Of a stretch of 56,911 nt of DNA, positions 4,992 through 56,054 are shown piece after piece. The translations under genes and the position numbers were made by a program. Numbering within the stretch: position 1 is the stretch's first letter; every line of letters starts with the position of its first letter. The notes under the pieces were generated by a model. That model worked only from the letters and a program-made list of their open reading frames with translations, ran no database searches and was not told the DNA's origin. The DNA is from Nemertoderma westbladi (Eukaryota; Animalia; Xenacoelomorpha): positions 1 through 56,911 of the forward strand of contig JAUCBJ010002337.1 in NCBI GenBank assembly GCA_032718475.1, written 5' to 3'.

Positions 4992-5079
4992 GTTACTATG
5001 AATTAAACGAAATCGAATGATTAAATTCGCTCTGTAAATATTGAATATCATAAAATCAAAGCGCTAAAACAGCCCAACC

Positions 5080-14052: not shown

Positions 14053-14217
14053 TGACGAATGTATATGTGGGGCTGCGCATTAATAATGGAGTGACATGCG
14101 GTCAAGTATAACGTATGTGTATTCAGATATTATAAGAAGAGCAAACCAAGCATTAGGCCTAGATGAAAAGGGCAGTACAGAATTCAGAAGGCAGTATAAG
14201 TACTGGAATACTATACA
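14053..14217 (-). repeat. Gypsy 3' LTR
   Basis: TGACGAATG...CTATACA, identical to 19025-19189. Confidence 0.95.
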
Positions 14218-14504
14218 TACTTACTTCCTGGTTTCCATAGGTTGCCAAGCAACGAAAGGCGTTGTTAAGCAACGATATAAACAACTGAGTTTGTGGTATG
14301 AACTAAGTACGCCTAAAATAAACTGTCACCGCACAGCGGTGAAAAAAAAAACGGTTTTCCTAGGCTGCCAAGCAACGGAAAGCGTTGCTAAGCGACGATA
14401 TAAACAGATGAGTTTGTGGCATGAACTAAATAAATGGTTACATAATTCGTATTATTGGGCCATGTAAAATGGAGTTGCGTTTAGGTATAAATTGTCTACA
14501 TGTA

Positions 14505-18956: not shown

Positions 18957-19014
18957 GTCGGGTGCGGTAGTTAAATGGACGTCGGTGGGTCCGGATTATC
19001 CGCGTGTTCAGAAA

Positions 19015-19024
19015 CGCTGCGCCA
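19015..19024 (-). promoter_or_regulatory. Primer-binding site TGGCGCAGCG, probably tRNA-Ser
   Basis: Directly abuts the 5' LTR end (…TTCGTCA|TGGCGCAGCG). Complementary to a …CGCUGCGCCA tRNA 3' end, as in eukaryotic tRNA-Ser. Confidence 0.7.
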
Positions 19025-19189
19025 TGACGAATGTATATGTGGGGCTGCGCATTAATAATGGAGTGACATGCGGTCAAGTATAACGTATGTGTATTCAGAT
19101 ATTATAAGAAGAGCAAACCAAGCATTAGGCCTAGATGAAAAGGGCAGTACAGAATTCAGAAGGCAGTATAAGTACTGGAATACTATACA
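19025..19189 (-). repeat. Gypsy 5' LTR
   Basis: Identical to 14053-14217. Confidence 0.95.
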
Positions 19190-19291
19190 GACGAAATGAG
19201 AGAAGGTTTTCACTTTCAGATATATTTGACCTCCTGCGGCAAACTGTAGAAGTGTAGAGTGCCGTCCCACAAAGAAGCAGGTCGTTTTCTA

Positions 19292-27514: not shown

Positions 27515-28073
27515 TTATTATCTTGTGGGGCGAGCCACGCAGTCAGGGCGAACCTTAGCGCACAATTATAATTAGTAAATAGGGCAAAATTTCATGGCCG
27601 TCTGTCTGTCTGTCCGTCTGTCTGTAATGAAAAATTCATTCGTAAATAACTTGTGAAGGTTTTAACCATTTTCAACCAAATTTATACTCTTACTCTTACT
27701 AGAGAAAAAGTTCCAATATTTTCGAAAGTTACGGGCAAATACCTCTCGAACTTTTGACTCCAGATCAAATCAAACTTGTTTCGAACTGGCTCAAGTTCGC
27801 GTGCTGCGCGACGCCCCACGAACGTGTAAACTTCAGTTGGTTGTATTATATTAAAAAGTAAACAGACTCCTCTATACATAATCATTATGTTTGTACATTA
27901 ACTATCTGTAGAACTTGTTGACCTTGAATGATTTGAGTACCAGTTGAATTACTGGGACTGTGGGAGTAAACCTTGGGTTAGGAGTAGCGTCCACCCTTGC
28001 CCTACCTTCAGGTAGCAGATAGGAGTAGCGCCCACCCCTACCTTCGGGTAGCAGATAGGAGTAGCGCCCACCC
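27515..28073. mobile_element. Possible Helentron/HINE-like non-autonomous element, left part (continues at 39954 to about 40535)
   Basis: (GTCY)n microsatellite CCGTCTGTCTGTCTGTCCGTCTGTCTGT at about 27598, followed by a core tandem repeat, the layout of DINE/HINE elements. A GC hairpin-like end GGCCTCGGCCGAGTGC lies at about 40511. Confidence 0.4.
27982..28073. repeat. 36-bp minisatellite, left part
   Basis: GGAGTAGCGCCCACCCCTACCTTC(A/G)GGTAGCAGATA, about 2.5 copies, interrupted by element A. Confidence 0.9.
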
Positions 28074-29315
28074 TGTAAAAGCTTTTGCGTAATTAGCCGG
28101 TTATTATCCCCGTAAAGTACTCTGTGGTTGGTTTACCAGGCATAAAAAGGCCGTGTCCTTGCTGTACTGGTGTTTTGGAGGACATAAAAGCCATTTCTTC
28201 TGTATTTGTACTTTAGAGGACATAATCTGTAATTTCGTGACGTAAAAGGCTCGATACTCTTGAAAACAGTGTCGCTACCATGACGACGGCTAACGGCTGA
28301 TATTGCCACGTTGCAACTTTCTGTATCTGCCAATAGAATTTGAGTTAGCTTTGATTTTGACCTATCACAGAGCTACTGAACTGAATTTTCCTATCTCACT
28401 GCTCTTTCTCTGTGTTGAACGGGAGCTTCGTGGAATAAGGGTAGCTGGTATTCTTATAGTTATTCTTATCAGTGTTGTTGGTGATTCTAAGCCAGGAAGA
28501 ACGGCTTTAGAGTATTTTGTGCTTTTATGCTTTAGCCTTACACTAGTAGGCTTAATTATAAGGACATATATCCGTTATCTGCATACTGCATACTGCAGTA
28601 CTGCATACACTGCATACTGTGTAACACTGTGCATACTTTTAGAATTGTTATACTGCTATTTACTGTCAGTTCTTCATAATATGGTTGATGAATTATTATA
28701 TTTGGAATAACGACAAATAACCCCGAAAACCCAATATTCTTGATATACCGAAGGTAAGAGAGAAAGGTTACAGATAAATGATTGCGACCTATGTTGAGTG
28801 GTTTGAAGTGAATCTAATGTTATTTGATAGACCCTACATGATTCGGTCCGTGTTCCTTTTATATGTGACTAAAATCAGTGAAGATCGGCAGATCAGTGTG
28901 CAGTATTGTGCAGCATTGTGTATGAGTGAGACTGATAACGAAGCATTTCCTAAAGAATGCGCCATATATGTGAATTGTAACTAAGCCATATCGTTGTGAG
29001 TAGTTTAAGTCATAACTCTGTTTATATAGATAGAGCGCCACGTCCTAAAGGAACTGTTAATATTCCCTGAAGGTGAATAATATTGTCAGAGATTATATAA
29101 TACTGTCAGTCGAATAATACATTAGGCTTACATAGCAATAAGATTAAGCTGTCGAAATCAATCTCCCGGGTATATCCAACGGGTGAATGATCGCGCACAG
29201 ATTGGTTTCAACTAGTGTAGTGAATCAAATACTTGTTAGAGGCTAAAGCGATTTATTATCTAGAAGACATCCTAATTTGGCGGGTTAAACTGCCAAAGGT
29301 CTGAAAGCGCGAACA
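28074..29315 (+). repeat. Element A 5' LTR
   Basis: Matches 38712-39953 at an offset of 10638. Confidence 0.95.
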
Positions 29316-29327
29316 ATAACGGATATA
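29316..29327 (+). promoter_or_regulatory. Non-tRNA primer-binding site ATAACGGATATA, complementary to LTR 28567-28578
   Basis: No TGG at the PBS position; perfect 12-bp complement to TATATCCGTTAT in the LTR; compensated in copy B. Confidence 0.75.
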
Positions 29328-31557
29328 GCTTCTTTATTGCAGTAAGCAATAAAGTTGAAAGTACCGGTCAACCGGTAAACCTGAACGGTCCATCTGTAGG
29401 TCAGTAGGCCCAACTGCCAGAACCGGTACTGCCGTAGGCCCGTAGGTCCAACTGCCAGAACCGGTACTTCAGTAGGTCGGTACGCCTAACTGTCCTAACC
29501 GGTACTTCCCGTATAAGTACAGCAGTATTATTCGATTTGATTATATATGCCGGTAGGTCTTAATAATTAATCGGGGACGCCTGGTTTTTATTGAGATTTT
29601 ACTTATTTCTGTCAAGTTTTATTTGTTTGTAGGCCAGTATTGAACAGAAGGCGTGTAAGCCTGATCAGATTGTACAGACAATTTGTAGGCTGAGCTGTTG
29701 TCTGATTGCTGTTAAGTCTGAACGGATTGCAGTGTGTGTAGATCACCTGTCCGATTAAGTACGGTTAGGAAGTAGGGGCAGCGAATGCTGTAAGGTAAAC
29801 CCCCAACTAAAGAATAAGTCGTACTACTGGGTTAGAACGCATACTCCCTAATCATTTCGGAGTCTGCATGTCCTGTAGTTTATTTAGGCTTGAGAGTAGT
29901 CTGCCATCGTTTAGTCTGTACTTTGTTTGTGTAAGTCTGTACGGGTAGCGTATAATTTTATTTAGATAATTTGTAGGCTGGATAGTTGTCTGGCTGTTAT
30001 TAGGCCTGAGCGGATTGCAGCGTGTGTAGATCACTTGTCCGATAAAGAACGGTTAGGAAGTAGGGGCAGCGAATGCTGTAAGGTAAACCCCCAATTAAAG
30101 AATAAGTCGTACTACTGGGTTAGAACGCATACTACCTAATTATTTCGGAGTCTGCATATACCGTAGTTTGTTTAGGCTTGATAGTAGTCTGTCAGTGTTC
30201 GGTCTGCATTTTGTTTGAGTAGTTTGTACGCGTAGCGTAATATTTATTATTCAGAGTTTATGCGATTATTCGCAACATTCATTCCCCAAGTTTGTTCCTA
30301 CAGTAATTGTGTTTGTTATACATACCGCTATAGTTAAATTAACCCCAGTACTACACGGGCTGCTTGGCATAGGTAAAGACTGGTGATTTTGTGCATCGGT
30401 CACTCCAGCAGATGCCGTGGTTCTTTTAGCTGTTCAAGTATATTTAACTACTGATTATCTGTTGTACAAGTACTCGTACCTAATTTAGGGTTTAGTGTAC
30501 AGTACTTTCCGAAGTAATTAGTGTAGACATTATATTTGTGTTGTAAAGTGGTTAATAGGCACGTTCGATTAGCTCTATTAACTTCTAGGTAGGAACACTC
30601 CGTGATACATAACGTAGAACCTATAGCGATACGGCTATAGGTCGTCAGGCGGTGGTATTTTTCTATCTGGACAACGCAGTGTATTTACTACTACTTATTA
30701 TTTCAAATACCGTAGTACCCTGTCCGTTGTAATAACCAGAATTCTAACCCTTTGTTAGGCTGGTTTGTAGACTTCTTGTAAAATTACCCTGAAATTCGTA
30801 TTTTGTGTTTTTGTAAATTTTTGTGTTTATTTAGAGATTGTAATCTCAACCCGAATTGTACGTAATTTGTAGTATTAAGTAACTTAGGTAAATTAGAATT
30901 ATTTGTTTTAGTGTCCTATAAGTAACACTTCACTGAAAGCGCACCGCTTTGTGTAGTGATTACTCCCCAGAAATAATAACATTTATTTCAAACATTGACT
31001 AAACCCATTAAAACGGGTATATATATATTATAAATCAAATCTAACGATTTATAAATAGTAGGCCTACCATATAACAATTAGGTCTCAATATCAGTTGGAC
31101 TACTGCTTAACTAACGGCAATAAAGTAAGTTAAAGTAACCAAGTAACCCTAAAATTCAGAAATTCAATTATTTAAAATAATTGATACACCGGTATTTACG
31201 ATAGGCCTATTATCTTATTTCTATAAATTTAGGCTGAAATTATACCGGTGCTTGTAATTAATTCTAGTCCAGAATTATATATACTACAAACTGTAAGCTG
31301 TATACCAGTATTCCCGATAGGCCTATTATATATTTATATATATTTGTGCTAAAATTATACCGGTATTCTGTGATAAACCTAGTCTGTAATAATAGTTATA
31401 TATACTATAAGCATACCGGTATTCTAATATATTATATATATCACGCTACACTGAGTAGCAGTACCGGTAATTAATTACTAGGCTAGCAGTTAATACTGAG
31501 TTACTAGACTTGCTCAGACTGTAATACAGCAGTAGATATTCAACTGTACACATAAGC

Positions 31558-34500
31558 ATGTCTGACGCAAAGCAGAACCTGTCAGACAGTCTACTAGATA
31601 CAACCGAGAGCGAAGTGACAGCAGAGAAACCGCATAAGAGGGATGCCATTGACATCTATCTGTCAGACTATCAACGTTTTTTAGGTAATGACGAGTTGAG
31701 GAGAAGGTTAGAGGGACTTAGCCCTAATAGTGAAGGAACCAAGCTTGTGTTGGATGCCATCGATGTGGAAATGAGGGCTGCGAATCAGGCTAAATTTGAT
31801 GAACAACTCCGCCTGACACGAGTCCAAGAAGAACAAGTAAAGAAAAAACGGATAGAAGATAGAAAGACAGCAGCAGCGGCAGTGGCAGCGGCAGAAGCGG
31901 ATAGAAAAGCGGCAGAGGCAGCGGCAGAGGCAAAAGCGGCAGCGGCAGAGGCAGCGGCAGAGGCAAAAGCGGCAGCGGCAGAGGCAAAAGCGGCAGCTGC
32001 GGCCGAAGCGGAAAGAAAAATAGCAGTAGCAGAAGCAGAACGGAGGGCGGCTGAAGAAACCATCCAATTAGAATTGGAAAACATTCAGGAGAATCAAGAC
32101 TGCATAAATAAACAGTTAACAGCTAGTAATATGCAGATGATGAATCGATCTACTCCCAAAAGACAGGGATATACATCATCTGAGGAAGGCGATACCACCG
32201 ATACTGAAGGCAAAGGAAATAGATCTCGTCTAAGCAGACGTAAAAGAACATTCCACCGTCAGAAATTGCCTGATTTGCCTCCAGCTGTTAGAAGGCAACT
32301 AAATAGCACCAACTTAGGCAGTACAGAACCCACAGACCAAATAATTAAAATAGAAAGACTCCCTACTATAGTAGATGAGCCTGAAATAATTAGGCCTGTT
32401 CTCGAAATCACCCCTTCGGTGATAGACACACCTGTGCTCCCTGAAGTTACCTCTAAATTCCCTCTGCATAGCACTAAGCTACCTGTGCCCCGTAGAACTG
32501 CCCCAGAGACAGTTCAAGTCCTGGATCCCGAGCGAAATATTCATAATTTGTCGCCCGTTGTCCCTCGTCCGCCCGCTACAATGTTGGCGACTCCCGCTTC
32601 GGCGGTCGAATGGGTGGACGAGAGACGGCGGGGGATGGATATCCTGCTCGGGCAGATGCAGGAGACTGTCCAGCAATTCAAGGGCACAGTAAGGGAAAGT
32701 AGGCTAGAGTTGCAAGAAGTGCAGCAAAGTATCGCGCTCGAACGCGATAAATTAGTAAATACCCAAAAGGGTATACCACCACCCTCTGTAACAATGTGTC
32801 AACCTGTTAGGTCTGAAGTATCGCATGCGCAAGGTGTGGAGCCTACACGCATATATACTGCTAGCGAAGTAGAAACTCCTATAGTGAACCCTATTAAGGG
32901 TAATTATAGACTTGTTGATAATGATATTCCACATAGAACTGATCATAATCCGAGAAATTTATATACCGATAACTTGATATTAAATAACACGATGGCCCAA
33001 GAAAGTTTTACGCGTCAAATGGCTAGAACCGAAGCCCGGCAAGCGGTAAAGGTGGGAGAGATCGTCAAGTTCAATGGAGATGAGATGAAATGGTTACCTT
33101 TTAATGAATATTACAAAGATAACATACAGAACTCTGTACTATCTAATGGAGAAAAACTTAGATACCTCATCGAGTGCTTGGAAGGATCTCCCAAGTTAAT
33201 GGCGTTAAGGTTTATTGGACATCCAGACGGATTAAGACAAGTTTGGGATACACTAAACATCAGGTATGGTAATAGGAATAACATAGCTGGGTATTTGTAT
33301 GCAAAGTTGGTAGCGCCCCGAAAGTTTATTAGCAGCGGGATTATAGAGTTTTCCGATGAAATTCAGGAGATCTGCAGACAATTAGATTGGCTAGGTAAGT
33401 CTCATGAGTATCAGAGTGCTATGGTTATTAGAGCAGTGGCTTCTACTTTACCGAAGGGTGGAGTAGGTACACGCTGGGATAAGAAAGTGTTATATATGAT
33501 GGAACAACAACGACGAGACCCTACCATGGCTGATCTCATGTCATTCTTAGATGGAGAAGTGAAATTACAGCTCCTAAGGCAGTCCAGAGAGAAGACATTG
33601 GAAAACAAGGTAAGTGAGAAACCCGTTTCTAGGAGAAGGGTAACACCAGTATGTTATACCGACGACGGTGAAAGCCAAACTTCTCAAGGAGAGGACAGCG
33701 GAAAAGACACTGACAGATCTTATTATGTCAATAAAATGCCTAAAGATCAGGTAAGTAAATCCGAGTCTCGACCCAATGACAGAAGGGAACCGGTACAAAA
33801 AACCCTTCCTACGTCTCCTAAAAGAATTCAGGTGAGAAAGCCCGAGGAAAGAACAAGTGTGCACCACATAGCACAGGTTAAAGTAAGTAACATCAAGCCG
33901 AAATGTGTGCTGTGCGACGGGCCCCACTGTTTAAATGCGTGTGATAAATTCCTGAGGAAATCACTAAAGGATAGACGTGAAGTCATGTGGGATAAGCGGT
34001 TGTGTTATAATTGCCTCAGACGAGGACACCAACGGCGAACCTGTTACTCCGACGCAAGGTGTGCAAAGTGCGGCGCAAAACATCATATCTTGTTGCACAC
34101 GGAATTCGAACGAAACAGCCCGAGTCAGGTAAGTGAGTCCGAACTACATGTCCAATTCAGTGATGTGAACGACACTGATCAATCTGAGATGGAAGGATTC
34201 TATACGGACGAGTTCTCCGACGAAAACGAATCCTGTTACTTAATAAACACCACCGCAGTGTATCGAGCACTCAAGTATGAGAAAGACACAGACAGTGACC
34301 TCACCCTAACTACTTCAGATCAACAACCATCTTGGAAAGCGCCAACTTCCAATGTAGGAATCCGAGAATTTCCTGTAGTCCAGTTACGGGTCCTCGGACC
34401 TCAGAAGAGCTATATAGTGAACGCCCTCCTGGACTCCGGCAGCACGGGAACATTCATCGATAGGGAACTAGCCGAGGACATCTTTGCTGGACAACCCAAG

Positions 34501-35643
34501 TTCCGAACCAAGCTAAACATGTCAGGGATCATGCAGGTTTGGAAATCTGCTGTGGCTGCCGACTATTATATAGGTGAGTTGTCCACTCCACAGGATAAAC
34601 TAGGAGAACACAGTATAAGGTCAGTCAAAATGGTGGCAATAAAGAACTTCGCTACTACTCAAGCAGACCTTTATAATTGGGACGAGGATGAGAGCATCCA
34701 ACATCTTAAGATACCTCGATTCCAGACTGATTATCCGGGAGTGCAAATACTCATCGGCCAAAATGCGCATGAGGCGCTGGAGACATTAGAGAAACGACCT
34801 ACTCAACCGCAATCACTTCAGACATATGCGGTAAGAACTAGAGTAGGTTGGTACCTTACTGGACCTTCCCGTAGAACGCTCAGGGAAAGACTGCTTCAAG
34901 ATCACGTCTGCCAGGTGAGTGAATGGGAAGACGATACTAGTGAGGGAGACGACCCAACTGAGGGAACACCACACTCCTCAGATAATGACAATCTTAACTC
35001 CAATGTAGATCAATGGAGATATTGCCCCAAGACGATGAATACAACTGACATCGCTTCCAGAGGAGCAACTCCTCAAGAACTGACAGATACTACAGACCGG
35101 TTAGGTGAACCCGACTTCCTGAGTAAGGAGGATGAATTGCCTCCCCATCTTACTCCGACTGAGATTAGACCAGCCAAGGGAGCGGAGAAAGTTAAACCTA
35201 AAACCCGGACGGGTGGAGCGGAGTTATTTGAACCCGGGATAGATCTGTCGGTATTACATATTGCCAGGGACGACGCCCTGGATCTGGACCTCCCCACCGC
35301 GAGTGGATCCTTCATGAAGATCAGAAAGAGCGATTGGAGCTCTGGAACATCAGACGTCTCGCAGGGACTCTCACCTCTCCTGCAGAGAGCGACGGACCAC
35401 TATAGCTCCTGGAATCGGCTTTGTGACGCCGTCATATACTTTGAGCGATGTTTCTATCGTCACTATTCCAGGACGAAGAGGAAACCTGGAATTGTATTCA
35501 GGATGCAGCGACTCAATCACCCAGTCGGTCGTTTGTGTTTACCGGAAGGGAATGGAGGACTCTCCGGAAACTGTGGAAGGCAAGATTCTCATCCCACGAC
35601 CACCTCCCTAATCCTTCAAACATCTAGGGACTCCATAACGTAA
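31558..35643 (+). CDS. Bel/Pao Gag-protease polyprotein fused in frame to the RNase H C-terminal stub; no RT or integrase
   Basis: DUF1759-like Gag (KFNGDEMKW..F, EKLRYL, L..RYGN). Triple knuckle CVLCDGPH..C / CYNCLRRGH..C / CAKCGAKHH..LH. Protease ALLDSGS, ILIG, GWYLTGP. Then directly QWRY..N..DIASRG, PDFL and YSSWNRL. Confidence 0.9.
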   Translation: MSDAKQNLSDSLLDTTESEVTAEKPHKRDAIDIYLSDYQRFLGNDELRRRLEGLSPNSEGTKLVLDAIDVEMRAANQAKFDEQLRLTRVQEEQVKKKRIEDRKTAAAAVAAAEADRKAAEAAAEAKAAAAEAAAEAKAAAAEAKAAAAAEAERKIAVAEAERRAAEETIQLELENIQENQDCINKQLTASNMQMMNRSTPKRQGYTSSEEGDTTDTEGKGNRSRLSRRKRTFHRQKLPDLPPAVRRQLNSTNLGSTEPTDQIIKIERLPTIVDEPEIIRPVLEITPSVIDTPVLPEVTSKFPLHSTKLPVPRRTAPETVQVLDPERNIHNLSPVVPRPPATMLATPASAVEWVDERRRGMDILLGQMQETVQQFKGTVRESRLELQEVQQSIALERDKLVNTQKGIPPPSVTMCQPVRSEVSHAQGVEPTRIYTASEVETPIVNPIKGNYRLVDNDIPHRTDHNPRNLYTDNLILNNTMAQESFTRQMARTEARQAVKVGEIVKFNGDEMKWLPFNEYYKDNIQNSVLSNGEKLRYLIECLEGSPKLMALRFIGHPDGLRQVWDTLNIRYGNRNNIAGYLYAKLVAPRKFISSGIIEFSDEIQEICRQLDWLGKSHEYQSAMVIRAVASTLPKGGVGTRWDKKVLYMMEQQRRDPTMADLMSFLDGEVKLQLLRQSREKTLENKVSEKPVSRRRVTPVCYTDDGESQTSQGEDSGKDTDRSYYVNKMPKDQVSKSESRPNDRREPVQKTLPTSPKRIQVRKPEERTSVHHIAQVKVSNIKPKCVLCDGPHCLNACDKFLRKSLKDRREVMWDKRLCYNCLRRGHQRRTCYSDARCAKCGAKHHILLHTEFERNSPSQVSESELHVQFSDVNDTDQSEMEGFYTDEFSDENESCYLINTTAVYRALKYEKDTDSDLTLTTSDQQPSWKAPTSNVGIREFPVVQLRVLGPQKSYIVNALLDSGSTGTFIDRELAEDIFAGQPKFRTKLNMSGIMQVWKSAVAADYYIGELSTPQDKLGEHSIRSVKMVAIKNFATTQADLYNWDEDESIQHLKIPRFQTDYPGVQILIGQNAHEALETLEKRPTQPQSLQTYAVRTRVGWYLTGPSRRTLRERLLQDHVCQVSEWEDDTSEGDDPTEGTPHSSDNDNLNSNVDQWRYCPKTMNTTDIASRGATPQELTDTTDRLGEPDFLSKEDELPPHLTPTEIRPAKGAEKVKPKTRTGGAELFEPGIDLSVLHIARDDALDLDLPTASGSFMKIRKSDWSSGTSDVSQGLSPLLQRATDHYSSWNRLCDAVIYFERCFYRHYSRTKRKPGIVFRMQRLNHPVGRLCLPEGNGGLSGNCGRQDSHPTTTSLILQTSRDSIT

Positions 35644-37301
35644 CAACATATGGAGTGGGCGTGTGACTCTATTATTTTATATTATTTTATTGTTTTTATA
35701 TTTACGTATGTATTACTATGTAATTTTATTATAATCGTTTTATTTAATTTTATTTACTAGAATATTATTTAGCGATTATTTAGTAGAATAGTGCAATATA
35801 TTCGTGTTTATTGCGTACGTAATTACTTATAATATATATTTAGTGCGACGGCAAGAAATAATTCTTTTCCTTCTTCCTTACTGTCCGTATTACATTACAA
35901 ATACGTAACTACAGTAAGATGAAATGTCCGTACTTATTAAAGTACAATAAAGCCACTACTATATTTAAGTATTATTGGTAGGCAGAGTATTAGGAATGCA
36001 AAGTTCAGATCCTCGTGTCTCGGCTAAACCAAGCTCTGGGTAGACCTTGGAAACGACTTGCCTCTTCACACTGACATTGCTTCGTGCGATATTGCTCTCA
36101 TACCGTATATTAAATAATACATATAGTAGCGTGATGTCCCTTTAACAGTAGCGTTTAATGCAAAATAAATCTGTTAAACCCTTTGACCATCTGTAATTCT
36201 AGTCGATTAAGATATCGCGGCACCCACCGATATACTTGAAAGACAAATTCTAGAATCAGTGGTTAACGTCCCCAGACAAGTTCTGGAATAAATCGGTGCC
36301 CATCTCAAATATTAATTATTTAATATTTGCAAATCTAATAAATCAAAATCTGTAAAATTCAGATCCTTCAACAATTCTAGTCAATTAAGATATCGTAGCA
36401 TTTACCGATATTCTTAAAAAAGACAATTGTCATAGAATTAAGGATCTTGTGTCCCTAGACATGTTCTAGAATCAAAATATGTCCATTTAATTATCAAATA
36501 ATAAAATTTCAGGGAATAAATTTAAATTCATGCCTTTTAATGAATTTAATAAATTGCCATTTTTACGCAATTTATAACATTCCCAAAATTCCATTAATTA
36601 ATAGATCAAGGGAGCGGAGATTTATCTTATTATGCATATGAGTGTGCGAAAGTCTCCCAAACATAGTCAATAGCCGATAAAATTCATAGAGTCATGTATA
36701 AAACAGAACATTGACTATTAAAGAATACTATTAAATAACATCCCAGATCTGTATGTATTGGAATTACCCTAATTCTACCGCTAGCTTTGCATAATGTCAC
36801 CATAGCAACAACCACGCTAGAATTAGAATTGAGTTAAAAGAACAATAGAAAGCTTGTCCCATTGAATAGCATAGGGAATAAATAGCGCACTACTAGTATC
36901 CAAGGATACATAATAATACAGTGACATTCTGGAAGGCATTGACTAACGGACAAATGGCCCGAATGTGTAATTTGTGACAAGTTGTGTGTGTGGTATTTGT
37001 GAGTTTATAGGCGAATGTTACTACTAAGGTGTGTTTACAGTAGCGAGTCGCAATTGTGAAAGTAACCCTAACTCTCCAGTAAGAACCTGAGGTGTATCTA
37101 AGCCTTTGGGACGGACAGTCGAATGACTTGTGCCGGTTGTCGTTGTCGTTGTGCGGCTACGTCGTTGGCGAAAGTACAGCGGCGACGACACATCGGCGCT
37201 GAGGATCTCGTACTGTCCGGGGGTTGATTGGGGTAGGCAGCGACGCCCGCTCGCCTAAATGTGGACTCATTATAATATGGATAAACTCATATATAGCAGA
37301 T

Positions 37302-38608
37302 ATGACGGAGTTGATAGAAGATGGTCTTGGTATCGGGGAGCGATATACTCTACTTTTACAAGCGTTTGTTGATAGCTTAATACGCGGCGACGTTAGTCCA
37401 ACTGCTGCGGAGGACGATGGTCGTTATATCGAACCGCCAATGTCCCAAGAGCAGCTCACGCGTGAGTTGGACTATAGAAAATTCGCTGCTCGATATACGC
37501 AGCGTAATGGTACGTATATGGTCTTCTTAACTACTGGTCCTCCTATCGATTTACATAATACGGACTATGTCGACTATATATCCTGCCCAGCGGAGTCGGA
37601 ACCATAAACTGAAATTCGAATGCGAAAATTCTATTCGAAATCGACTCGAAAGAAAAGACACTAAAGAAACAAATAAACGCGGTAACTCCAACGTATATTT
37701 GGAATTCTTGATAGAAGCATTGTAACAACAAATAAATATCACCCGCGTTTCCCCTACCAGACGTGCGTCTTTGGTATTATTACGATAAATGCCCTAGACC
37801 CAACTAATAAACGGAAAGACATAAACATCCACGGAAACGTTGTGTTAAACACAGTTGTGCTCGTTATATTTACTGGAGTTTCGAGCGAAACTTGTTTGAC
37901 GTATCACATATGCTCACTCGGCTCGAACGATCCTGGAGTAAACCTACGATCAGAGTCCCGGAATACTCGGTCAAACCTCCTCATTCCTTAGTTGGACCTC
38001 AGACCTGCGATCCTGGTGGTGTCGCGGATCCTCGCGGACTGTATTCACTGTTCAAAGATCTAGTGCTACCCTAACAATTAATCGGTAACACTCCGACAGT
38101 GATTTCTAGCTAGCCGCCCATCTTACCTAGCTGGATTGTGACGCGGACACCTAATATCACTATCCAACCGTATGGTCGTTCCCGTTTAACGCGATACAAC
38201 CCTTCATCAAGGTGAAGGAGAGCGTTGTACGAAACGAGTTAAACGCTATTCTATAAAGATCAAAAAGGAAACCTGCGTTTGTTCAGATAAACGTAAGTTA
38301 TAACAGTAAGTCCAATCGATAAACGAATTGGCCTTATCTCAGTTCGATTTGGAAATCTCGAATCTCTAAGAAGAAATCAAGCTTAGAAAACCCTATTCTC
38401 GGCGAGAGTTTTGGATGAACGTATCCAGCTACGAGCGGAGGAAAATCAGCTCGAGGAGAAGCATATCGAAACGGCGGATACCCCGACCATAATCCTACAC
38501 CTTCTGATGCAATCATATTGCACCCTTCACCCAGGATTTATAGCCCTCCTAGTAAAGTGGCTCGCCCCAAAGAGAAAAGGACTCTTGCTAGCCTCAAAAA
38601 CTGCGTAA
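37302..38608 (+). pseudogene. Decayed second ORF of element A, at the env/accessory position; unidentified
   Basis: Protein-like frames (MTELIEDG..., RFPYQTCVFGII.., SFERNLFDV.., DERIQLRAEE..) are colinear with element B and broken by stops and frameshifts. Confidence 0.55.
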
Positions 38609-38711
38609 ACGCCGTCTGCGTAAGAAAGACTAACTGTTTAGAGTATCTTTATATTTTAGAAACTGTGATTTGTTATATTTTATAGACTTAAATCCCATTT
38701 TCTGGGAGTGG

Positions 38712-39953
38712 TGTAAAAGCTTTTGCGTAATTAGCCGGTTATTATCCCCGTAAAGTACTCTGTGGTTGGTTTACCAGGCATAAAAAGGCCGTGTCCTTGC
38801 TGTACTGGTGTTTTGGAGGACATAAAAGCCATTTCTTCTGTATTTGTACTTTAGAGGACATAATCTGTAATTTCGTGACGTAAAAGGCTCGATACTCTTG
38901 AAAACAGTGTCGCTACCATGACGACGGCTAACGGCTGATATTGCCACGTTGCAACTTTCTGTATCTGCCAATAGAATTTGAGTTAGCTTTGATTTTGACC
39001 TATCACAGAGCTACTGAACTGAATTTTCCTATCTCACTGCTCTTTCTCTGTGTTGAACGGGAGCTTCGTGGAATAAGGGTAGCTGGTATTCTTATAGTTA
39101 TTCTTATCAGTGTTGTTGGTGATTCTAAGCCAGGAAGAACGGCTTTAGAGTATTTTGTGCTTTTATGCTTTAGCCTTACACTAGTAGGCTTAATTATAAG
39201 GACATATATCCGTTATCTGCATACTGCATACTGCAGTACTGCATACACTGCATACTGTGTAACACTGTGCATACTTTTAGAATTGTTATACTGCTATTTA
39301 CTGTCAGTTCTTCATAATATGGTTGATGAATTATTATATTTGGAATAACGACAAATAACCCCGAAAACCCAATATTCTTGATATACCGAAGGTAAGAGAG
39401 AAAGGTTACAGATAAATGATTGCGACCTATGTTGAGTGGTTTGAAGTGAATCTAATGTTATTTGATAGACCCTACATGATTCGGTCCGTGTTCCTTTTAT
39501 ATGTGACTAAAATCAGTGAAGATCGGCAGATCAGTGTGCAGTATTGTGCAGCATTGTGTATGAGTGAGACTGATAACGAAGCATTTCCTAAAGAATGCGC
39601 CATATATGTGAATTGTAACTAAGCCATATCGTTGTGAGTAGTTTAAGTCATAACTCTGTTTATATAGATAGAGCGCCACGTCCTAAAGGAACTGTTAATA
39701 TTCCCTGAAGGTGAATAATATTGTCAGAGATTATATAATACTGTCAGTCGAATAATACATTAGGCTTACATAGCAATAAGATTAAGCTGTCGAAATCAAT
39801 CTCCCGGGTATATCCAACGGGTGAATGATCGCGCACAGATTGGTTTCAACTAGTGTAGTGAATCAAATACTTGTTAGAGGCTAAAGCGATTTATTATCTA
39901 GAAGACATCCTAATTTGGCGGGTTAAACTGCCAAAGGTCTGAAAGCGCGAACA
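38712..39953 (+). repeat. Element A 3' LTR
   Basis: Matches 28074-29315. Confidence 0.95.
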
Positions 39954-40479
39954 CACCCCGACCTTCAGGTAGCCGATAGGAGTAGCGCCCACCCCTACCT
40001 TCAGGTAGCAGATAGGAGTAGCGCCCACCCCTACCTTCAGGTAGCAGATAGAAGTAGCGCCCACCCCTACCTTCGGGTAGCAGATAGGAGTAGCGCCCAC
40101 CCCTACCTTCAGGTAGCCGATAGGAGTAGCGCCCACCCCTACCTTCAGGTAGCAGATAGGAGTAGCGCCCACCCCTACCTTCGGGTAGCAGATAGGAGTA
40201 GCGCCCACCCCTACCTTCAGGTAGCAGATAGGAGTAGCGCCCACCCCTACCTTCGTGTAGCAGATAGGAGTAGCGCCCACCCCTACCTTCAGGTAGCAGA
40301 TAGAAGTAGCGCCCACCCCTACCTTCGGGTAGCAGATAGGAGTAGCGCCCACCCCTGCCTTCAGGTAGCCGATAGGAGTAGCGCCCACCCCTACCTTCAG
40401 GTAGCAGATAGGAGTAGCGCCCACCCCTACCTTCGGGTAGCAGATAGGAGTAGCGCCCACCCCTACCTTCGGGTAGCAG
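39954..40479. repeat. 36-bp minisatellite, right part (about 14.5 copies)
   Basis: Same unit as 27982-28073; the phase continues across the TSD. Confidence 0.95.
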
Positions 40480-41084
40480 CTATTGAATGATGAGCCTTCG
40501 GGTCACTTCCGGCCTCGGCCGAGTGCTTCTTTGATTACTTGTAGACCTACTTGCTACTTGTTGCTTGTTACTATACTTGTACATCTGACTCCTTGTGTCA
40601 TGATGAATAAATAATATAAAAAATAAAAACTTTAATTGGGCTTTCTTTACAAATACGAAGACTATTGGTACTATTTTGGTAACCATAATCACTACAACTA
40701 CTAATGGCATGTCATGCTTAAACTTCAATTTAAACGATGTCATGTCACAAAACCAATTATTGTTGAATTTGAATTTACCTCAAGTAGCATACAGTACCAC
40801 TGGATGAAGCATCGACGAGTTTTATTTGATTGGCTAATCAATTTTCCTTGTCTTTCATAGGAACTTTTATGACACTTTTTCTGGTGCACGAAAAATGTAA
40901 GCTATTCATTCAGCCCTATTTCCCGACAGTGATTTCCAAATAAGGAAGGACTTCAAGCGATATCACAGATGTGATTTACGACTACTAGACTTCACCACCA
41001 TCTTAAAAACTGTTCAACATACTGTAACAATTTTGCAATTCAACATCCGTCATCCACATCCGTTATCTGCAGCAGTCCCTCATT

Positions 41085-43056: not shown

Positions 43057-44222
43057 TGTTCGCGCTTTTAAGACCCTTGACAGTTTAACCTGCCAAATTA
43101 GGATGTCTTTTGGATGATATATATTCTTTAGCTTATGACGAGTATTTGATACACTACATTAGCCGAAGCCAGCCTATGCGCAATCATTCACCCGTTGGAT
43201 ATACCCGGGAGACTGAGTTCGGAGCTTAATGATTGATGGTGTAAGCCTACCGTATTATTCGACTGATCGTAATATATAATCTCTGACAAATATTATTCAC
43301 TTTCGGTAAATATTAACAGTTCCTTTAGGACGTGGCGCTCTAAATATGTAAACAGAGTTATGACTTAAACTAGACACAACGAAAAGGCTATAGATTAACG
43401 TATATGGCGCATTCTTTAGGAGATGCTTTGTTATCAGTTACAATCATACACAATACTGCACAATACTGCACACTAATCTGCCTACCTTCACTAAATTTGG
43501 TCACGTATAAAGAGAGCAACAGACAATTTATGTTGGGCATATGAAATAGCATTAGATTCACTTCAAACCACTCAACATAGGTCGCAATCGTTTATCTGTA
43601 ACTGGTCTCTCTAACCTTTAGTATATCAAGAAGGTGGGGTGTCTGACTATTGATCAGTATTCCGATATAATAATTCATCAACAAATATCACGAATAACCA
43701 ACAGCAAAAGCAGTAATGTAAGATATGAATTGCATAGATATGTATGATAAGATTGTAATTAACTCGATAACAGATATACGTTCTATAATTAAGCCTACTA
43801 ATGTAAAGCTAAAGAACGCTGATATACGGAGGTGCTAAAAGCCAATGTTCTTAGGCTCTGAGCAAAAACATAACACTGAACTACTGAGTTCTGTACACAC
43901 CTCCAACACAGAGACAAAAAACGCTCTGATTGGTCAACCGAACAACGAGAGAACAAAGAAACAAAGAAACGTCGACGTGGCAATATCAGCTGTTAGCCGT
44001 CGTCATGGTAGCGACACTGTTTTCAAGAGTATCCAGCTTATCGCGTCACGAGATTGCGGATTATGTCCTCTAAAGTACAAATACAGTACAAATACAGAAG
44101 AAATGACTTTTATGTCCTCTAAAACACCAGTACAGCAAGGACACGGCCTTTTTATGCCTGGCAAACCAACTACAGAGTACTTTAAGGGAAAATAACCGGT
44201 TAATGACGCAAAAGCTTTTACA
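43057..44222 (-). repeat. Element B 3' LTR
   Basis: Matches 54889-56054 at an offset of 11832; preceded on the minus strand by TGGGAGCGG. Confidence 0.95.
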
Positions 44223-48988: not shown

Positions 48989-51900
48989 TTACGTTATGGA
49001 GTCCCTAGATGTTTGAAGGATTAGGGAGGTGGTCGTGGGAAGAGAATCTTGCCTTCCACAGTTTCCGGAGAGTCCTCCATTCCCTTCTGGTAAACACAAA
49101 CGACCGACTGGGTGATTGAGTCGCTGCATCCCGAATACAATTCCAAGTTTCCTCTTCGTCCTGGAATAGTGACGATAGAAACATCGCTCTAGGTACACGA
49201 CGGCCTTACAAAGCCGATTCCAGGAGCTATAGTGGTCCGTCGCTCCCTGCAGGAGAGGTGAGAGTCCCTGCGAGACGTCTGATGTTCCAGAGCTCCAATC
49301 GCTCTCTCTGATCTTCATGAAGGATCCACTCGCGGTGGGGAGGTCCAGATCCACGGCGTCGTCCCTGGCAATATGTAATACCGACAGATCTATCCCGGGT
49401 TCAAATAACTCCGATCCACCCGTCCGGGTTTTAGGTTTGACTTTCTCCGCTCCCTTGGCTGGTCTAATCTCAGTCGGAGTAAGATGGGGAGGCCATTCAT
49501 CCTCCTTACTCAGGAAGTCGGGTTTACCTAACCGTTCTGTAGTATCTGTCAGTTCTTGAGGAGTTGCTCCTCTGGAAGCGATGTCAGTTGGATTAAACTT
49601 CTTGGGGCAATATCTCCATTGATCTACATTGGAGCTAATATCGTCATTATCTGAGGAGTATGGTGTTCCCTCAGTTGGGTCGTCTCCCTCACTAGTATCA
49701 TCTTCCCATTCACTCACCTGGCAGACGCGATCTTGAAGCAGTCTTTCTCTGAGCGTTCTTCGGGAAGGTCCAGTAAGGTACCAACCTACTCTAGTTCTTA
49801 CCGCATAGGTCTGAAGTGGTTGCGGTTGAGCAGGTCGTTTCTCCAATGTCTCCAGCGCCTCATGCGCGTTTTGACCGATTAATATTTGTACTCCAGGATA
49901 ATCGGTGTCGAATCTAGGAATGTTAAGTTGTTGGGCATGATCATCTTCGTCCCAATTATAAGGTTCCACTTGGGTGGTAGCGAAGTTCTTTATTGCCACC
50001 ATTTTGACTGACCTTATACTGTGTTCTCCTAGTTTATCCTGTGGAGTGGACAACTCACCTATATAATAGTCGGCAGCTACAGTAGAATTCCAAACCTGCA
50101 TGATCCCTGACATGTTTAGCTTGGTTCGGAACTTGGGTTGTCCAGCAAAGATGACTTCGGCTAGTTCTTTATCGATGAATGTTCCTGTGCTACCGGAGTC
50201 CAGGAGGGCGTTCACTATATAGCTCTTCTGAGGTCCGTGGACCCGTAACTGGACTACAGGAAATTCTCGGATTCCTATATTGGAAGTTGGCGCTTTCCAA
50301 GATGGTTGTTGATCAGAAGTAGTTAAGGTAAGGTCGCTGTCTGTGCCTTTCTCATGCATGAGTGCTCGATACACTGCGGTGGTGTTTATTAAGTAACAGG
50401 ATTCGTTTTGGTCGGAGAATTCGTCCGTATAGAATCCTTCCATCTCAGAACTTTGGTCAGTGTCGTTCACATCACTGAATTGGACATGTAGTTGTTCGGA
50501 CTCACTTACCTGACTCGGGCTGCTTCGTTCGAATTCAGTGTGCAACAAGATGATGTTTTGCACCGCACTTTGCACACCTTGCGTCGGAGTAACAGGTTCG
50601 CCGTTGGTGTCCTCGTCTGAGGCAATTATAACACAACCGCTTATCCCACATGACTTCCCGTCTCTCTTTTAATGATTTCTTTAAGAATTCATCGCACATA
50701 TTCAAGCGGTGGGGCCCATCGCACAGCACACATTTGGGTTTGATGTTACTTACTTTAACCTGTGCTGTGTGGTGCACACTTGTTCTCTCCTCGGGCCCTC
50801 TCACCTGAACTCTCTTGGGAGACGTAGGAGGAGTTTTTCTTACCTGTTCTCTCCTGTCATTGGTTCGAGACTTGAATTTACTTACCTGATCTTTAGGCAT
50901 TTTATTTACGTAATAAGATCTGTCAGTGTCTTTCCCGCTATCTTCTCCTTGAGAAGTCTGGCTTTCGCCATCATCTGTATAACACACTGGTGTTACCCTT
51001 CTCCTAGAAACGGGTTTCTCACTTACCTTGTTTTCCAGTGTCTTCTCTCTGGACTGCCTTAGGAGCTGTAATTTCACTTCTTCATCTAGGAATGACATGA
51101 GATCAGCCATGGTAGGGTCTCGTCGTTGTTGTTCCATCATATATAACACTTTCTTATCCCAGCGTGTGCCTACTCCACCTTTCGGTAAAGTAGAAGCCAC
51201 TGCTCTAATAACCATAGCACTCTGATACTCATGAGACTTACCTAGCCAATCTAATTGTCTACAGATCTCCTGAATCTCATCGGAAAACTCTATAATCCCG
51301 CTGCTAATAAACTTTCGGGGCGCTACCAACTTTGCATACAAATACCCAGCTATGTTATTCCTATTACCATACCTGATGTTTAGTGTATCCCAAACTTGTC
51401 TTAATCCGTCTGGATGTCCAATAAACTTTAACGCCATTAACTTGGGAGATCCTTCCAAGCACTCGATGAGGAATCTAAGTTTCTCTCCATTAGATAGTAC
51501 AGAGTTCTGTATGTTATCTTTGTAATATTCATTAAAAGGTAACCATTTCATCTCATCTCCATTGAACTTGACGATCTCTCCCACCTTTACCGCTTGCCGG
51601 GCTTCGGTTCTAGCCATTTGACGCGTAAAACTTTCTTGGGCCATCGTGTTATTTAATATCGAGTTATCGGTATATAAATTTCTCGGATTATGATCCGGTC
51701 TATAGGGAATATCATTATCAACAGGTCTATAATTACCCTTAATAGGGTTTACTATAGGGGTTTCCACTTCACTAGCAGTATAGATGCGTGTAGGCTCCAC
51801 ACCTTGCGCATGAAATACTTCAGACCTAACAGGTTGACACATTGTTACAGGGGGTGGTGGTATACCCTTTTGTAAATTGACTAATTTATCGCGTTCTAAC

Positions 51901-52684
51901 GCGATACTTTGCTGCACCTTTTGCAACTCTAACCTACCTTCCCTGACTGTTCCCTTGAGCTGCTGAACAGTCTCTTCCATTTCCCGGACCTGCTGGGAGG
52001 AACATTTACAATGTTCCCTCAGCTGCCCGAGCAGGAGACCCATCTCCCGTCGTCCCTCAGCTACCCACTCGACCGCCGAAGCGGGAGTCGCCAACGTAGT
52101 AGCGGGCAAGCGAGAGACGACGGGCGATAAATTCTGGATATCTCGCTCGGCGTCCAGGATGGGTTCGGACTCGGGAACAGTCCTACTGGGCACAGGTAGT
52201 TTCGTGCTGTGTAAAGGGAATTTAGAGGTAGGTTCTGGGAGTACAGGTGTCTCTATCACCGCAGGGGTGGCTTTGAGAACAGGCCTAATTATTTCAGGCT
52301 CATCTACTATAGTAGGGAGTCTTTCTACTGTAATAATTTGGTCTGTGGGTTCTGTACTACCTAAGTCTGTGCTAGCTAGTCTCACCACAGGAGGCAAATT
52401 AGGTAACTTCGGACAGTGTGGCATTCTTCTACGCCTGCTTGAACGAGATTTATTACCTCTACTTTCGGGATCTCTTATATCACCTTCATCGGATAACTGT
52501 CTTAATAACTGTCTTCCGATTTGTCTCCTCAAGTCTGCTTCTGCCACTGCCTCTGCCGCTTTTCTTTCCGCTTCTGCCGCTGCTACTTTTCTTTCTTCTA
52601 TCCTTTCAAGACACTGTCCAAGTCGAAGACTCATTCTAACACTTTTCAAAAGACTATCTGACAGTGCCCGTTTTGTGTCAGATA
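48989..52684 (-). pseudogene. Element B Gag-protease ORF; start codon ATA and a 2-nt frameshift at about 50548
   Basis: ORFs 50535-52649 (Gag) and 48989-50575 (PR + RNase H stub) align to A's 1361-aa protein. CATCATATCTTG in A is CATCATCTTG in B, and the position of A's ATG reads ATA (52682-52684). Confidence 0.85.
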
Positions 52685-54877
52685 TGTTTGATTGTACAGT
52701 TGAATGTCTACTGCTATATTACAGTTAAAGCAAGTCTAGTAATTCAGTATCACTGTTAGCCTAATAATTAATTACCGATACTGCAACTCAGTGGAGCGTG
52801 ATATATATATAATATATTAGAATACCGGTATGCTTATGGTATATATAAGTATTATTACAGACTAGGTTTTTTACAGAAACCGGTATATAATTTTAGCACA
52901 GATATATATAAATATATAATAGGCCTATCGTGGATACCGGTATGCAGTTTACACTTATAGTATATATAAGTATAATTATTAACTAGAATTAATTACAGAA
53001 TACCGGTATGATTTCAACCTAAAATTTATAGAAATAAATATAATAAGCCTATTGTAAATACCGGTATGTCAATTATTTTAGAATAATTGAATTTCTGAAT
53101 TTTAAGGGATACTTGGTTACTTTAACTTACTTTATCGCCGTTATTTAAGCAGTAGTCCAACTGATATTGAGACCTAATTGTTATATGGCAGGCCTACTAT
53201 TTATAAATCGTTTGAGTTGATTTATAATATATATATACCCGTTTAATGGGTTTTGTCAATGTTTGAAATAAATGTTATTATTTCTGGGGGAGTCACTACA
53301 CATAAGCTGTGCGCTCTCAGTGGAGTGCTACTTGTTAGACACTAAAACAAATAATTCTAATTTACCTAAGTTACTTAATACTACAAATTACGTACAATTC
53401 GGGTTGAGATTACAATCTCTAAATAAACACAAGAATTTAATTACAAATACACAAATACAAATTTTTAGGGTAATTTTACAAGAAGTCTACTAACCAGCCT
53501 AACAAAGGGTTAGAATATCTGGTTATTACAACGGACAGGTTACTACGGTATTTGAAAATAATAAGTAGTAGTAAATATACTGCGCTGTCCAGATAGGAAA
53601 ATACCACCGCCTGACGACCTATAACCGTATCACTATAGGTACTACGTTATGTATCACGGAGTGTCCCTACCTAGAAGTTAATTACCGCGGTCTACCAGAA
53701 CCAACGTGCCTATTAACCACTTTACAACACAAATACACTGCCTACACACTAATTGCTTTCGGAAAGCACTGTACACTAAACCCTAAATTAGGTACAAGTA
53801 CTTGTATAACAAATAATTAGTAGTTAAAATACTTGAACAGCCAAAAGAACCACGGTATCTGCCGGAGTGACCAAAGCACAAAATCTCCAGTGTTTACCTA
53901 CGCCGAGCAGCCCTGATGTAGTACCGGGGTTAGTTTAACTATAACGGTATGTATAACAAACACAATTACTGTAGGAACAAACTTGGGGAATGAATGTTGC
54001 GAATAATCGCATAAACTCTGAATAATAAATATTACGCTACGCGTACAAACTACTCAAACAAAATGCAGACCAAATACTGACAGACTACTATCAAGCCTAA
54101 ACAAACTACGGTATATGCAGACTCCGAAATGGTTAAGTAGTATGCGTTCTAACCCAGTAGTACGACTTATTCTTTAGATGGGGGTTTACCTTACAGCGAT
54201 GGCTGCCCCTACTTCCTAACCGTTCTTTATCGGACAGATGCTTTGCACACACCGAAATTTCCTCAAACCCAACAACAGCCAGACAACTATCCAGCCTACA
54301 AATTATCTAAATAAAATTATACGCTACCCGTACAGACTACACAAACAAAGTACAGACCAAACGCTGGCAGACTCCTATCAAGCCTAAATAAACCACAGGA
54401 CATGCAGACTCCGAAATGGTTAAGTAGTATGCGTTCTAACCCAGTAGTACGACTTATTCTTTAGATGGGGGTTTACCTTACAGCGATGGCTGCCCCTACT
54501 TCCTAACCGTTCTTTATCGGACATACACTCTACATGCACTGCAATCCGTTCAGACCTAATCAACAGTCAGCCAACAGTCAAGCCTACAAATTATCTGTAC
54601 AATCTGAGCAGGCTTACACGCCTTCTGCTCAATACTGGCCTACAAATAAATAAAACTGGCAGAAATAAGTAAACTATACAAAAGAATGAGGGGTGATCAA
54701 TCCCTATTCCCCTGGCAGCCTACATTATACAATAGATCACAATCGAATAATACTGCTGTACCTGTACCGTAAGTACCGGTTCGGGCAGTTGGGCCTACAG
54801 GCCTACAGTAGTACAGGTTACCGTTCAACCGGTACCGGTACTTTAGACTGGATTGCTTACACCGCAATCCAGAAGCA

Positions 54878-54888
54878 ATATCTGTTAT
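54878..54888 (-). promoter_or_regulatory. Non-tRNA primer-binding site ATAACAGATAT, complementary to LTR 55599-55609
   Basis: Abuts the 5' LTR end at 54889; perfect 11-bp complement inside the LTR. Confidence 0.75.
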
Positions 54889-56054
54889 TGTTCGCGCTTT
54901 TAAGACCCTTGACAGTTTAACCTGCCAAATTAGGATGTCTTTTGGATGATATATATTCTTTAGCTTATGACGAGTATTTGATACACTACATTAGCCGAAG
55001 CCAGCCTATGCGCAATCATTCACCCGTTGGATATACCCGGGAGACTGAGTTCGGAGCTTAATGATTGATGGTGTAAGCCTACCGTATTATTCGACTGATC
55101 GTAATATATAATCTCTGACAAATATTATTCACTTTCGGGAAATATTAACAGTTCCTTTAGGACGTGGCGCTCTAAATATGTAAACAGAGTTATGACTTAA
55201 ACTAGACACAACGAAAAGGCTATAGATTAACGTATATGGCGCATTCTTTAGGAGATGCTTTGTTATCAGTTACAATCATACACAATGCTGCACAATACTG
55301 CACACTAATCTGCCGACCTTCACTAAATTTAGTCACGTATAAAGAGAGCAACAGACAATTTATGTTGGGCATATGAAATAGCATTAGATTCACTTCAAAC
55401 CACTCAACATAGGTCGCAATCGTTTATCTGTAACCGGTCTCTCTAACCTTTAGTATATCAAGAAGGTGGGGTGTCTGACTATTGATCAGTATTCCGATAT
55501 AATAATTCATCAACAAATATCACGAATAACCAACAGCAAAAGCAGTAATGTAAGATATGAATTGCATAGATATGTATGATAAGATTGTAATTAACTCGAT
55601 AACAGATATACGTTCTATAATTAAGCCTACTAATGTAAAGCTAAAGAACGCTGATATACGGAGGTGCTAAAAGCCGATGTTCTTAGGCTCTGAGCAAAAA
55701 CATAACACTGAACTACTGAGTTCTGTACACACCTCCAACACAGAGACAAAAAACGCTCTGATTGGTCAACCGAACAACGAGAGAACAAAGAAACAAAGAA
55801 ACGTCGACGTGGCAATATCAGCTGTTAGCCGTCGTCATGGTAGCGACACTGTTTTCAAGAGTATCCAGCTTATCGCGTCACGAGATTGCGGATTATGTCC
55901 TCTAAAGTACAAATACAGTACAAATACAGAAGAAATGACTTTTATGTCCTCTAAAACACCAGTACAGCAAGGACACGGCCTTTTTATGCCTGGCAAACCA
56001 ACTACAGAGTACTTTAAGGGAAAATAACCGGTTAATGATGCAAAAGCTTTTACA
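54889..56054 (-). repeat. Element B 5' LTR
   Basis: Matches 43057-44222. Confidence 0.95.

Follow-up and report, generated by a model that had tools for sequence, protein, structure and literature searches.

A hairpin behind the primer binding site of two pol-less BEL/Pao elements in Nemertoderma westbladi: a likely family-specific RNA stem-loop

The window, that is, the whole stretch of 56,911 nucleotides of contig JAUCBJ010002337.1 (assembly GCA_032718475.1) from Nemertoderma westbladi, contains two copies of one LTR element, A and B, on opposite strands (Table 1). Both are recent insertions, with 100% identity between the LTRs of A and 99.4% between those of B; A and B differ from each other by 8-16% depending on the region. 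Between the LTRs lies a BEL/Pao gag-protease region (PF03564, E values of 2e-11 and 6.5e-11), and 26 of the 27 matches of a protein search, all 27 of them listed, carry BEL/Pao Pfam domains. The protein searches returned distant relatives only (21-40% identity). When full-length BEL/Pao polyproteins were compared by tblastn, they aligned over gag and protease only, and queries from relatives longer than 1500 aa gave no match outside 32750-35250 and 49000-52000. Reverse transcriptase (RT) and integrase are absent from A and B, neither domain giving a Pfam match in either copy. The elements resemble Belpaoviridae in their DUF1759 gag, zinc knuckle, protease region, TG...CA LTRs of about 1.2 kb and 5-bp target duplication, and differ from them in the absence of RT and integrase and of a TGG at the primer binding site (PBS). 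Lacking the pol of Belpaoviridae, A and B are deletion derivatives, that is, non-autonomous BEL/Pao elements. A search with a 20-nt conserved LTR pattern gave no match in metagenome contigs and none in viral contigs, and a search of the viral contigs with a BEL alignment found no relative.

Table 1. Coordinates of elements A and B and of the features discussed (numbering of the whole window)
Feature	Position	Strand	Description
Element A	28074-39953	+	LTR to LTR
5' LTR of A	28074..29315	+	1242 bp; same as 3' LTR; 5-bp target duplication CACCC
Candidate self-primer, 5' LTR of A	28567..28578	+	repeated at 39205-39216 in 3' LTR
U5 hairpin of A	29276..29297	+	8 bp; ends 18 nt before PBS
PBS of A	29316..29327	+	directly after LTR end; no TGG; 12 nt complementary to 28567-28578
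Hairpin behind PBS, copy A	29332..29354	+	CTTTATTGC-AGTAA-GCAATAAAG; 9-bp stem, 5-nt loop
AATAAA within 3' arm of this hairpin in A	29348..29353	+	absent from B
Five ACCGGT palindromes 3' of hairpin	29363..29503	+	B has three; candidate sites of dimer formation or protein binding
Leader hairpin	30619..30642	+	9 bp; B has two changes, each giving G-U
Leader hairpin	31028..31054	+	9 bp; stem same in B, loop altered
Leader hairpin	31164..31184	+	9 bp; stem same in B, loop altered
Single ORF of A	31525..35643	+	1372 codons; gag (DUF1759, PF03564), zinc knuckle, protease region
3' non-coding hairpin	36306..36329	+	10 bp; B has one compensated pair
Two adjoining 3' non-coding hairpins	36522..36575	+	10 + 9 bp; in B one G-U change, one compensated pair
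3' LTR of A	38712..39953	+	identical to 5' LTR
Element B	56054-43057	-	LTR to LTR
5' LTR of B	54889..56054	-	1166 bp; 7 differences to 3' LTR; target duplication TGCTG
Candidate self-primer, 5' LTR of B	55599..55609	-	complementary to PBS of B
U5 hairpin of B	54908..54929	-	counterpart of 29276..29297
PBS of B	54878..54888	-	11 nt complementary to 55599-55609
Hairpin behind PBS, copy B	54848..54872	-	CTGGATTGC-GGTGTAA-GCAATCCAG; 9-bp stem, 7-nt loop
Coding region of B	48989..52718	-	two frames, 50535-52718 and 48989-50668
3' LTR of B	43057..44222	-	partner of 54889..56054

Several other features were recorded in and around the two elements. The 2.2-kb leader of A includes a tandem duplication of about 288 bp (29676-30255), which is found in both copies. 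A itself sits inside an array of 36-bp tandem repeats (27964-28073 and 39954-40482), and B carries an insertion (45137-46905) with an RT fragment of non-LTR type on the opposite strand (45657-46589; RVT_1, DUF6451). Elsewhere in the window there is a Ty3/gypsy-type element (14052-19192) with 169-bp LTRs that are 99.4% identical and a 1496-codon frame encoding RT, RNase H and integrase. The minus strand carries a Crypton-like tyrosine-recombinase ORF with DUF3504 at 1421-2908. It also has NUDIX and DUF4504 ORFs at 4227-5943, which are 16 bp apart and each in one long frame.

According to the ICTV profile, the replication of BEL/Pao elements is poorly understood and is primed by tRNA, through a PBS of 18 nt complementary to tRNA-Arg or tRNA-Gly (PMC8742986). 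No TGG follows the LTR of A or B, so that neither has a PBS of this kind, and ARAGORN detected no tRNA genes; priming by a tRNA fragment may nevertheless occur. Instead, the PBS of each copy is complementary to a segment of its own LTR. Chance matches of this kind are expected in the LTR at 0.0007 (A, for an 11-mer) and 0.0014 (B), and the one primer-PBS pair that differs between A and B has changed on both sides. Under a published screening rule for self-primers (PMC6317226), a PBS of at least 10 nt has to start within 0-5 nt of the 5' LTR end and be complementary to that LTR; both A (12 nt) and B (11 nt) would be retained, each at offset 0. In long folds, the primer-PBS duplex appeared in only one of four. 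A literature search of titles and the openings of abstracts, with few subscription journals and no supplements, found no self-priming BEL/Pao element, and PMC3118150 nowhere mentions primer, PBS or tRNA.

A block that ends with the primer (28554-28578) is kept between A and B and includes an AT-rich hexamer 16-19 nt before the primer 3' end; the duplex can, moreover, be extended upstream by four pairs after a gap of 2-3 nt (by eye in B). The candidate primer may be an RNA 3' end. Neither LTR has a TATA at -30 or a canonical poly(A) signal (AATAAA, ATTAAA), so that the primer may derive from a 5' or a 3' end. A spliced primer was considered and rejected: in both copies the complement is one unbroken stretch, and a split model fits one of ten related loci. 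Two PBS positions, 29316 and 29320, show another letter in 50-66% and 63-69% of the contig depth, respectively (sequencing runs X1-X3); self-priming predicts matching changes at 28578 for the former and 28574 for the latter.

An earlier note on this DNA, made from the letters alone, had described a hairpin just 3' of the PBS in both copies. The hairpins are indeed found at those coordinates, with perfect 9-bp stems and differing loops. Each stem starts 16 nt past the end of the 5' LTR in copies of one element, which makes the hairpins of A and B homologous; the gap to the PBS is 4-5 nt. The replacement of TT/AA by GG/CC on both arms was likewise confirmed: seven of the nine pairs are the same, the two that differ are neighbours, with U-A in A where B has G-C, and no pair is broken. 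Folded alone, the bare stem reaches -8.5 kcal/mol in A (z -5.2) and -13.7 kcal/mol in B (z -5.9), z-scores that flatter the hairpin because the windows were cut to the stem; fixed 50-nt windows after the PBS give z values of -4.6 (A) and -3.2 (B). The local pair probability of the stem is 0.99 in A, in four windows of 110-450 nt, and 0.98-0.99 in B, and thus stands at 0.98-0.99 in all eight local windows. In long folds of about 900-1150 nt it falls to 0.5 in one of two for A and to 0.15 in both for B, where the folds span 871-1121 nt. A search of Rfam gave no match at the gathering score in the window and none at E values up to 1 in 29200-29600.

The position of the hairpin is unusual: a perfect stem of at least 9 bp starting within 40 nt of a given point arose in 0.135% of 20,000 Markov simulations. 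When the stem is forbidden, predicted PBS accessibility drops by 0.09-0.33 in seven of eight windows, a weak test, because the bases of any freed helix can find other partners.

How much the two-pair swap proves depends on how the changes are counted. Assuming independent substitution with the measured A/B spectrum, the probability of at least two compensated pairs with none broken is 2e-4 to 7e-4, and that of two mirrored doublet changes 1e-4 to 2e-4. A covariation shuffle, which says nothing either way with only two sequences and one adjacent doublet, reached the observed score in 112 of 500 shuffles; the covariation evidence covers the two full copies, A and B, compared as BLAST segments. 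The swaps are adjacent and therefore probably record one or two events, and the swap has the weight of a single piece of evidence. As a caution, neighbouring pairs of a short perfect stem that have changed in a compensatory manner are best counted as one event. Furthermore, a change from U-A to G-C requires two transversions per pair and passes through no G-U intermediate; the focal stem itself shows no G-U change and so carries no strand signal.

These properties bear on a different origin of the hairpin. When replication switches templates, one arm of a palindrome can be rewritten from the other, several mismatches being converted at once, and multibase adjacent changes that keep pairing are ascribed to this process (Monttinen and Loytynoja 2022, PMC8794818). 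The hairpin could thus be a selectively neutral palindrome in the DNA, which template-switch mutation keeps perfect, without any RNA role, and the swap its mutational footprint. As in the cases described in that paper, adjacent pairs have changed jointly and pairing is perfect; adjacent double transversions on both arms, lacking a G-U intermediate, are what this process would leave, and adjacent substitutions between A and B number 108 against 55 expected. The loop here, unlike the loops of those cases, is altered but not inverted (the loops of A and B are not reverse complements), and the event is not reconstructible from two copies. Neither the altered loops nor the fixed place of the stem behind the PBS, with its frequency by chance of 0.135%, is explained by mutation of this kind, and the same is true of the strand bias of the neighbouring helices described below. 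A purely mutational origin is therefore considered unlikely. Nonetheless, the swap does not provide the independent support for a functional RNA that the earlier note had drawn from it, since template switching can yield adjacent double transversions and does so on both strands alike (PMC8794818).

Further copies of the family provide a second view of the stem. The family is both highly variable and highly repeated: contigs were drawn from five sequencing runs, and 11,379 of those from X1 fall on 981 bases. Variant sequences over the hairpin come from loose ends of contigs, 18 of 29 of which are listed, and the 3' arm, judged by eye, is readable in seven. In four of the seven, from runs X1, X3 and X4, the 3' arm matches that of A and the loop, of 7 nt, is different; as far as these rows show, only the loop has changed. 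The remaining three have a broken stem and represent two distinct variants: one, found in X1 and X3 and hence in two studies, keeps the five inner pairs with the next pair mismatched, and the other, from a single X1 contig, has three of nine pairs mismatched. The absence of uncompensated mismatches from other copies, on which the earlier note had made its reading depend, is thus borne out by four of the seven rows and contradicted by three. By eye, both broken variants place a left-arm G opposite a right-arm A at the sites where the two full copies disagree. Such variants, seen in two studies, agree with the template-switch origin, and they are the half-changed state needed by a template-switch or a selection route alike. 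The change between TT/AA and GG/CC would have taken two steps, one arm changing and the other being repaired, by template switching or by a selected substitution. In a longer contig alignment, no position in 29321-29389 is among the 40 of 121 variable positions listed.

Stronger evidence for a function in RNA comes from the surroundings of the hairpin. The non-coding DNA of A contains seven perfect stems of at least 9 bp, whereas 60 local shuffles average 0.52 and reach 3 at most. Across the stems of at least 8 bp that are perfect in A or B, the non-coding regions hold 65 pairs, of which 58 are the same in both copies, four compensated, three changed to or from G-U and none broken; the corresponding figures for the 41 pairs of ORF stems are 35, one, two and three. 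Between 4.3 and 8.5 broken non-coding pairs would be expected, and the probability of finding none is 0.011-0.0001, or 0.021-0.0004 if the focal stem is left out. In a strand test with wobble pairs allowed, the sense strand shows nine one-sided G-U changes in 12 shared helices and the antisense strand none in nine shared helices, a contrast inflated to some degree by the G+T-rich sense strand of the leader, which favours G-U. Template switching cannot leave such a pattern, since its products pair perfectly and do not differ between the strands; the pattern points to selection acting on the sense RNA.

The U5 hairpin, on the other side of the PBS, illustrates the point. Its three changes between A and B are all exchanges of Watson-Crick and G-U pairs, and its sense z-scores exceed the antisense ones in strength in both copies (-4.0 versus -2.3 in A; -5.3 versus -1.7 in B). 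By eye, the loose-end rows contain two further versions of it in which all pairs are kept via G-U. The U5 hairpin is a better candidate for an RNA structure than the focal hairpin, and RNA function is better evidenced by the neighbouring helices than by the focal stem. In addition to the palindromes given in Table 1, a second cluster of five ACCGGT palindromes lies at 31188-31468, before the ORF, and is also present in B.

The hairpin had been compared to the structure required around the PBS of Tf1. In Tf1, the stretches next to the PBS form duplexes with parts of the LTR that lie downstream of the primer (PMC10085805), and the whole forms a pretzel of three duplexes. The comparison fails for the 3' side: in A and B the nucleotides that follow the PBS fold back on one another into a local hairpin instead of pairing with the LTR, and no convincing pretzel duplex was found. 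The candidates for such a duplex, nine weak ones of 6-9 bp shared with B out of 79 in A, all use the bases of the hairpin and were rejected. On the 5' side, a helix in U5 does stand just before the PBS (29276-29297), and this U5 hairpin would be the nearer analogue of the Tf1 U5 helix (U5-IR). Relative to the Tf1/sushi group of Ty3/gypsy elements (Tf1, Tf2, Tj1 and Tosmo1-3), A and B share a PBS of 11-12 nt after the LTR CA, complementary to the same LTR, and helices that flank the PBS on both sides. They differ in being BEL/Pao elements, in having a local 3' helix rather than an LTR duplex, and in the distance of about 737 nt between primer and PBS; a transcript that starts with the primer, and release of the primer by RNase H, are putative in A and B.

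It has to be considered whether the hairpin could be an obligatory part of self-priming, the equal of the third Tf1 duplex, which would pack on the primer-PBS helix and set cleavage or RT loading. The hairpin does lie 4-5 nt from the PBS duplex, with the same spacing in A and B, and the U5 hairpin flanks the PBS on the other side. The flanking duplexes of Tf1, however, link PBS-adjacent to LTR sequence (PMC10085805), and only the nine weak candidates of 79 could do so here; a lower stem that would lengthen the hairpin towards the PBS and bring the helix beside it has a probability of at most 0.01. More distant relatives also argue against this role, which seems quite improbable. From a BEL alignment with 62 metagenome loci, 13 were used, with the 5' LTR end placed by eye, and 49 were left out for want of a terminal repeat, because the repeat was cut by the contig end or because the ends were unclear; two of the 13 (L058 and L060) are one family. 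None of these 13 distant BEL loci has a comparable hairpin after the PBS (no 9-bp stem and no z below -2, with a range of -1.8 to +1.1). Three of them have a PBS complementary to the LTR (L017 and L024 over 11 nt, L056 over 9 nt) and all three are without the hairpin. As the relatives are about 30% identical in protein, the result says only that the hairpin is not general. A TGG is missing within 6 nt after the LTR in 11 of the 13 (L002, L003, L010, L017, L024, L028, L039, L044, L056, L058 and L060).

A broader proposal is that this BEL/Pao lineage primes itself in a manner other than the pretzel, with a duplex of 11-12 bp spanning about 740 nt and clamped by the U5 and focal hairpins. This is advanced tentatively, as a possibility on the doubtful side.

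A third role might be suggested by the AATAAA of the 3' arm, which lies wholly within the stem of A and is seen, by eye, in six of the seven readable variant rows. The stem could mask this poly(A) signal and prevent premature cleavage behind the PBS, much as the polyA hairpin of HIV-1 masks AAUAAA (PMC3432602). Copy B, however, lacks the hexamer and yet keeps the stem, which is even stronger there. The site, moreover, is outside the LTR and hence not usable at the 3' end as it is in HIV-1, and the hexamer is common in AT-rich DNA. Masking of a poly(A) signal is consequently regarded as highly improbable.

Taken with the helices around it, the hairpin is likely to be a family-specific cis-acting RNA stem-loop of a known kind, with a role assigned by analogy. 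The reading put forward here, with a probability of roughly 55%, is that of a stem-loop in the sense RNA that would keep the PBS open and start a leader signal bound by Gag. The earlier note had proposed a selected RNA element of the priming or packaging complex; this is still the likeliest reading, mainly owing to the other helices and their nine G-U changes against none, and not to the focal stem from which it had been argued. In the proposed mechanism, the stem would fold locally in the sense transcript, with a predicted gain in PBS accessibility, and together with the U5 hairpin it would hold the PBS open between two hairpins. It would also begin the leader signal for Gag, by analogy with HIV-1 and Ty1. 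Indeed, packaging of HIV-1 requires stem-loops downstream of the PBS (PMC5035971), and palindromes of Ty1 are proposed dimer sites (PMC4974528). As in HIV-1 DIS/Psi and Ty1 PAL, a short and stable stem-loop lies just 3' of the PBS, in single-copy leader sequence outside the LTR, as expected of a packaging stem-loop of retroviral type, and is followed by palindromes; Gag binding is putative. Unlike those elements, the hairpin shows no sequence likeness to them (no Rfam match), and its loop varies and lacks self-complementarity.

Since A and B inserted recently although the element has neither RT nor integrase, the packaging and copying of its RNA would have to take place in trans. A helper would supply these functions, and selection would act on the cis signals. 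The hairpin is likely to be one of about ten RNA stem-loops that the element needs for packaging and copying. On its own it is ordinary, since LTR elements are expected to have structured leaders; it is of use as a marker, being part of a set of sense-strand helices that maps the cis signals of a BEL/Pao element. If the broader proposal of a primer duplex clamped by two hairpins is true, the hairpin pair would be the signal in cis by which an element devoid of RT is primed and packaged in trans. Should self-priming be confirmed, two hairpins flanking the PBS would represent a second way to build a self-priming site.
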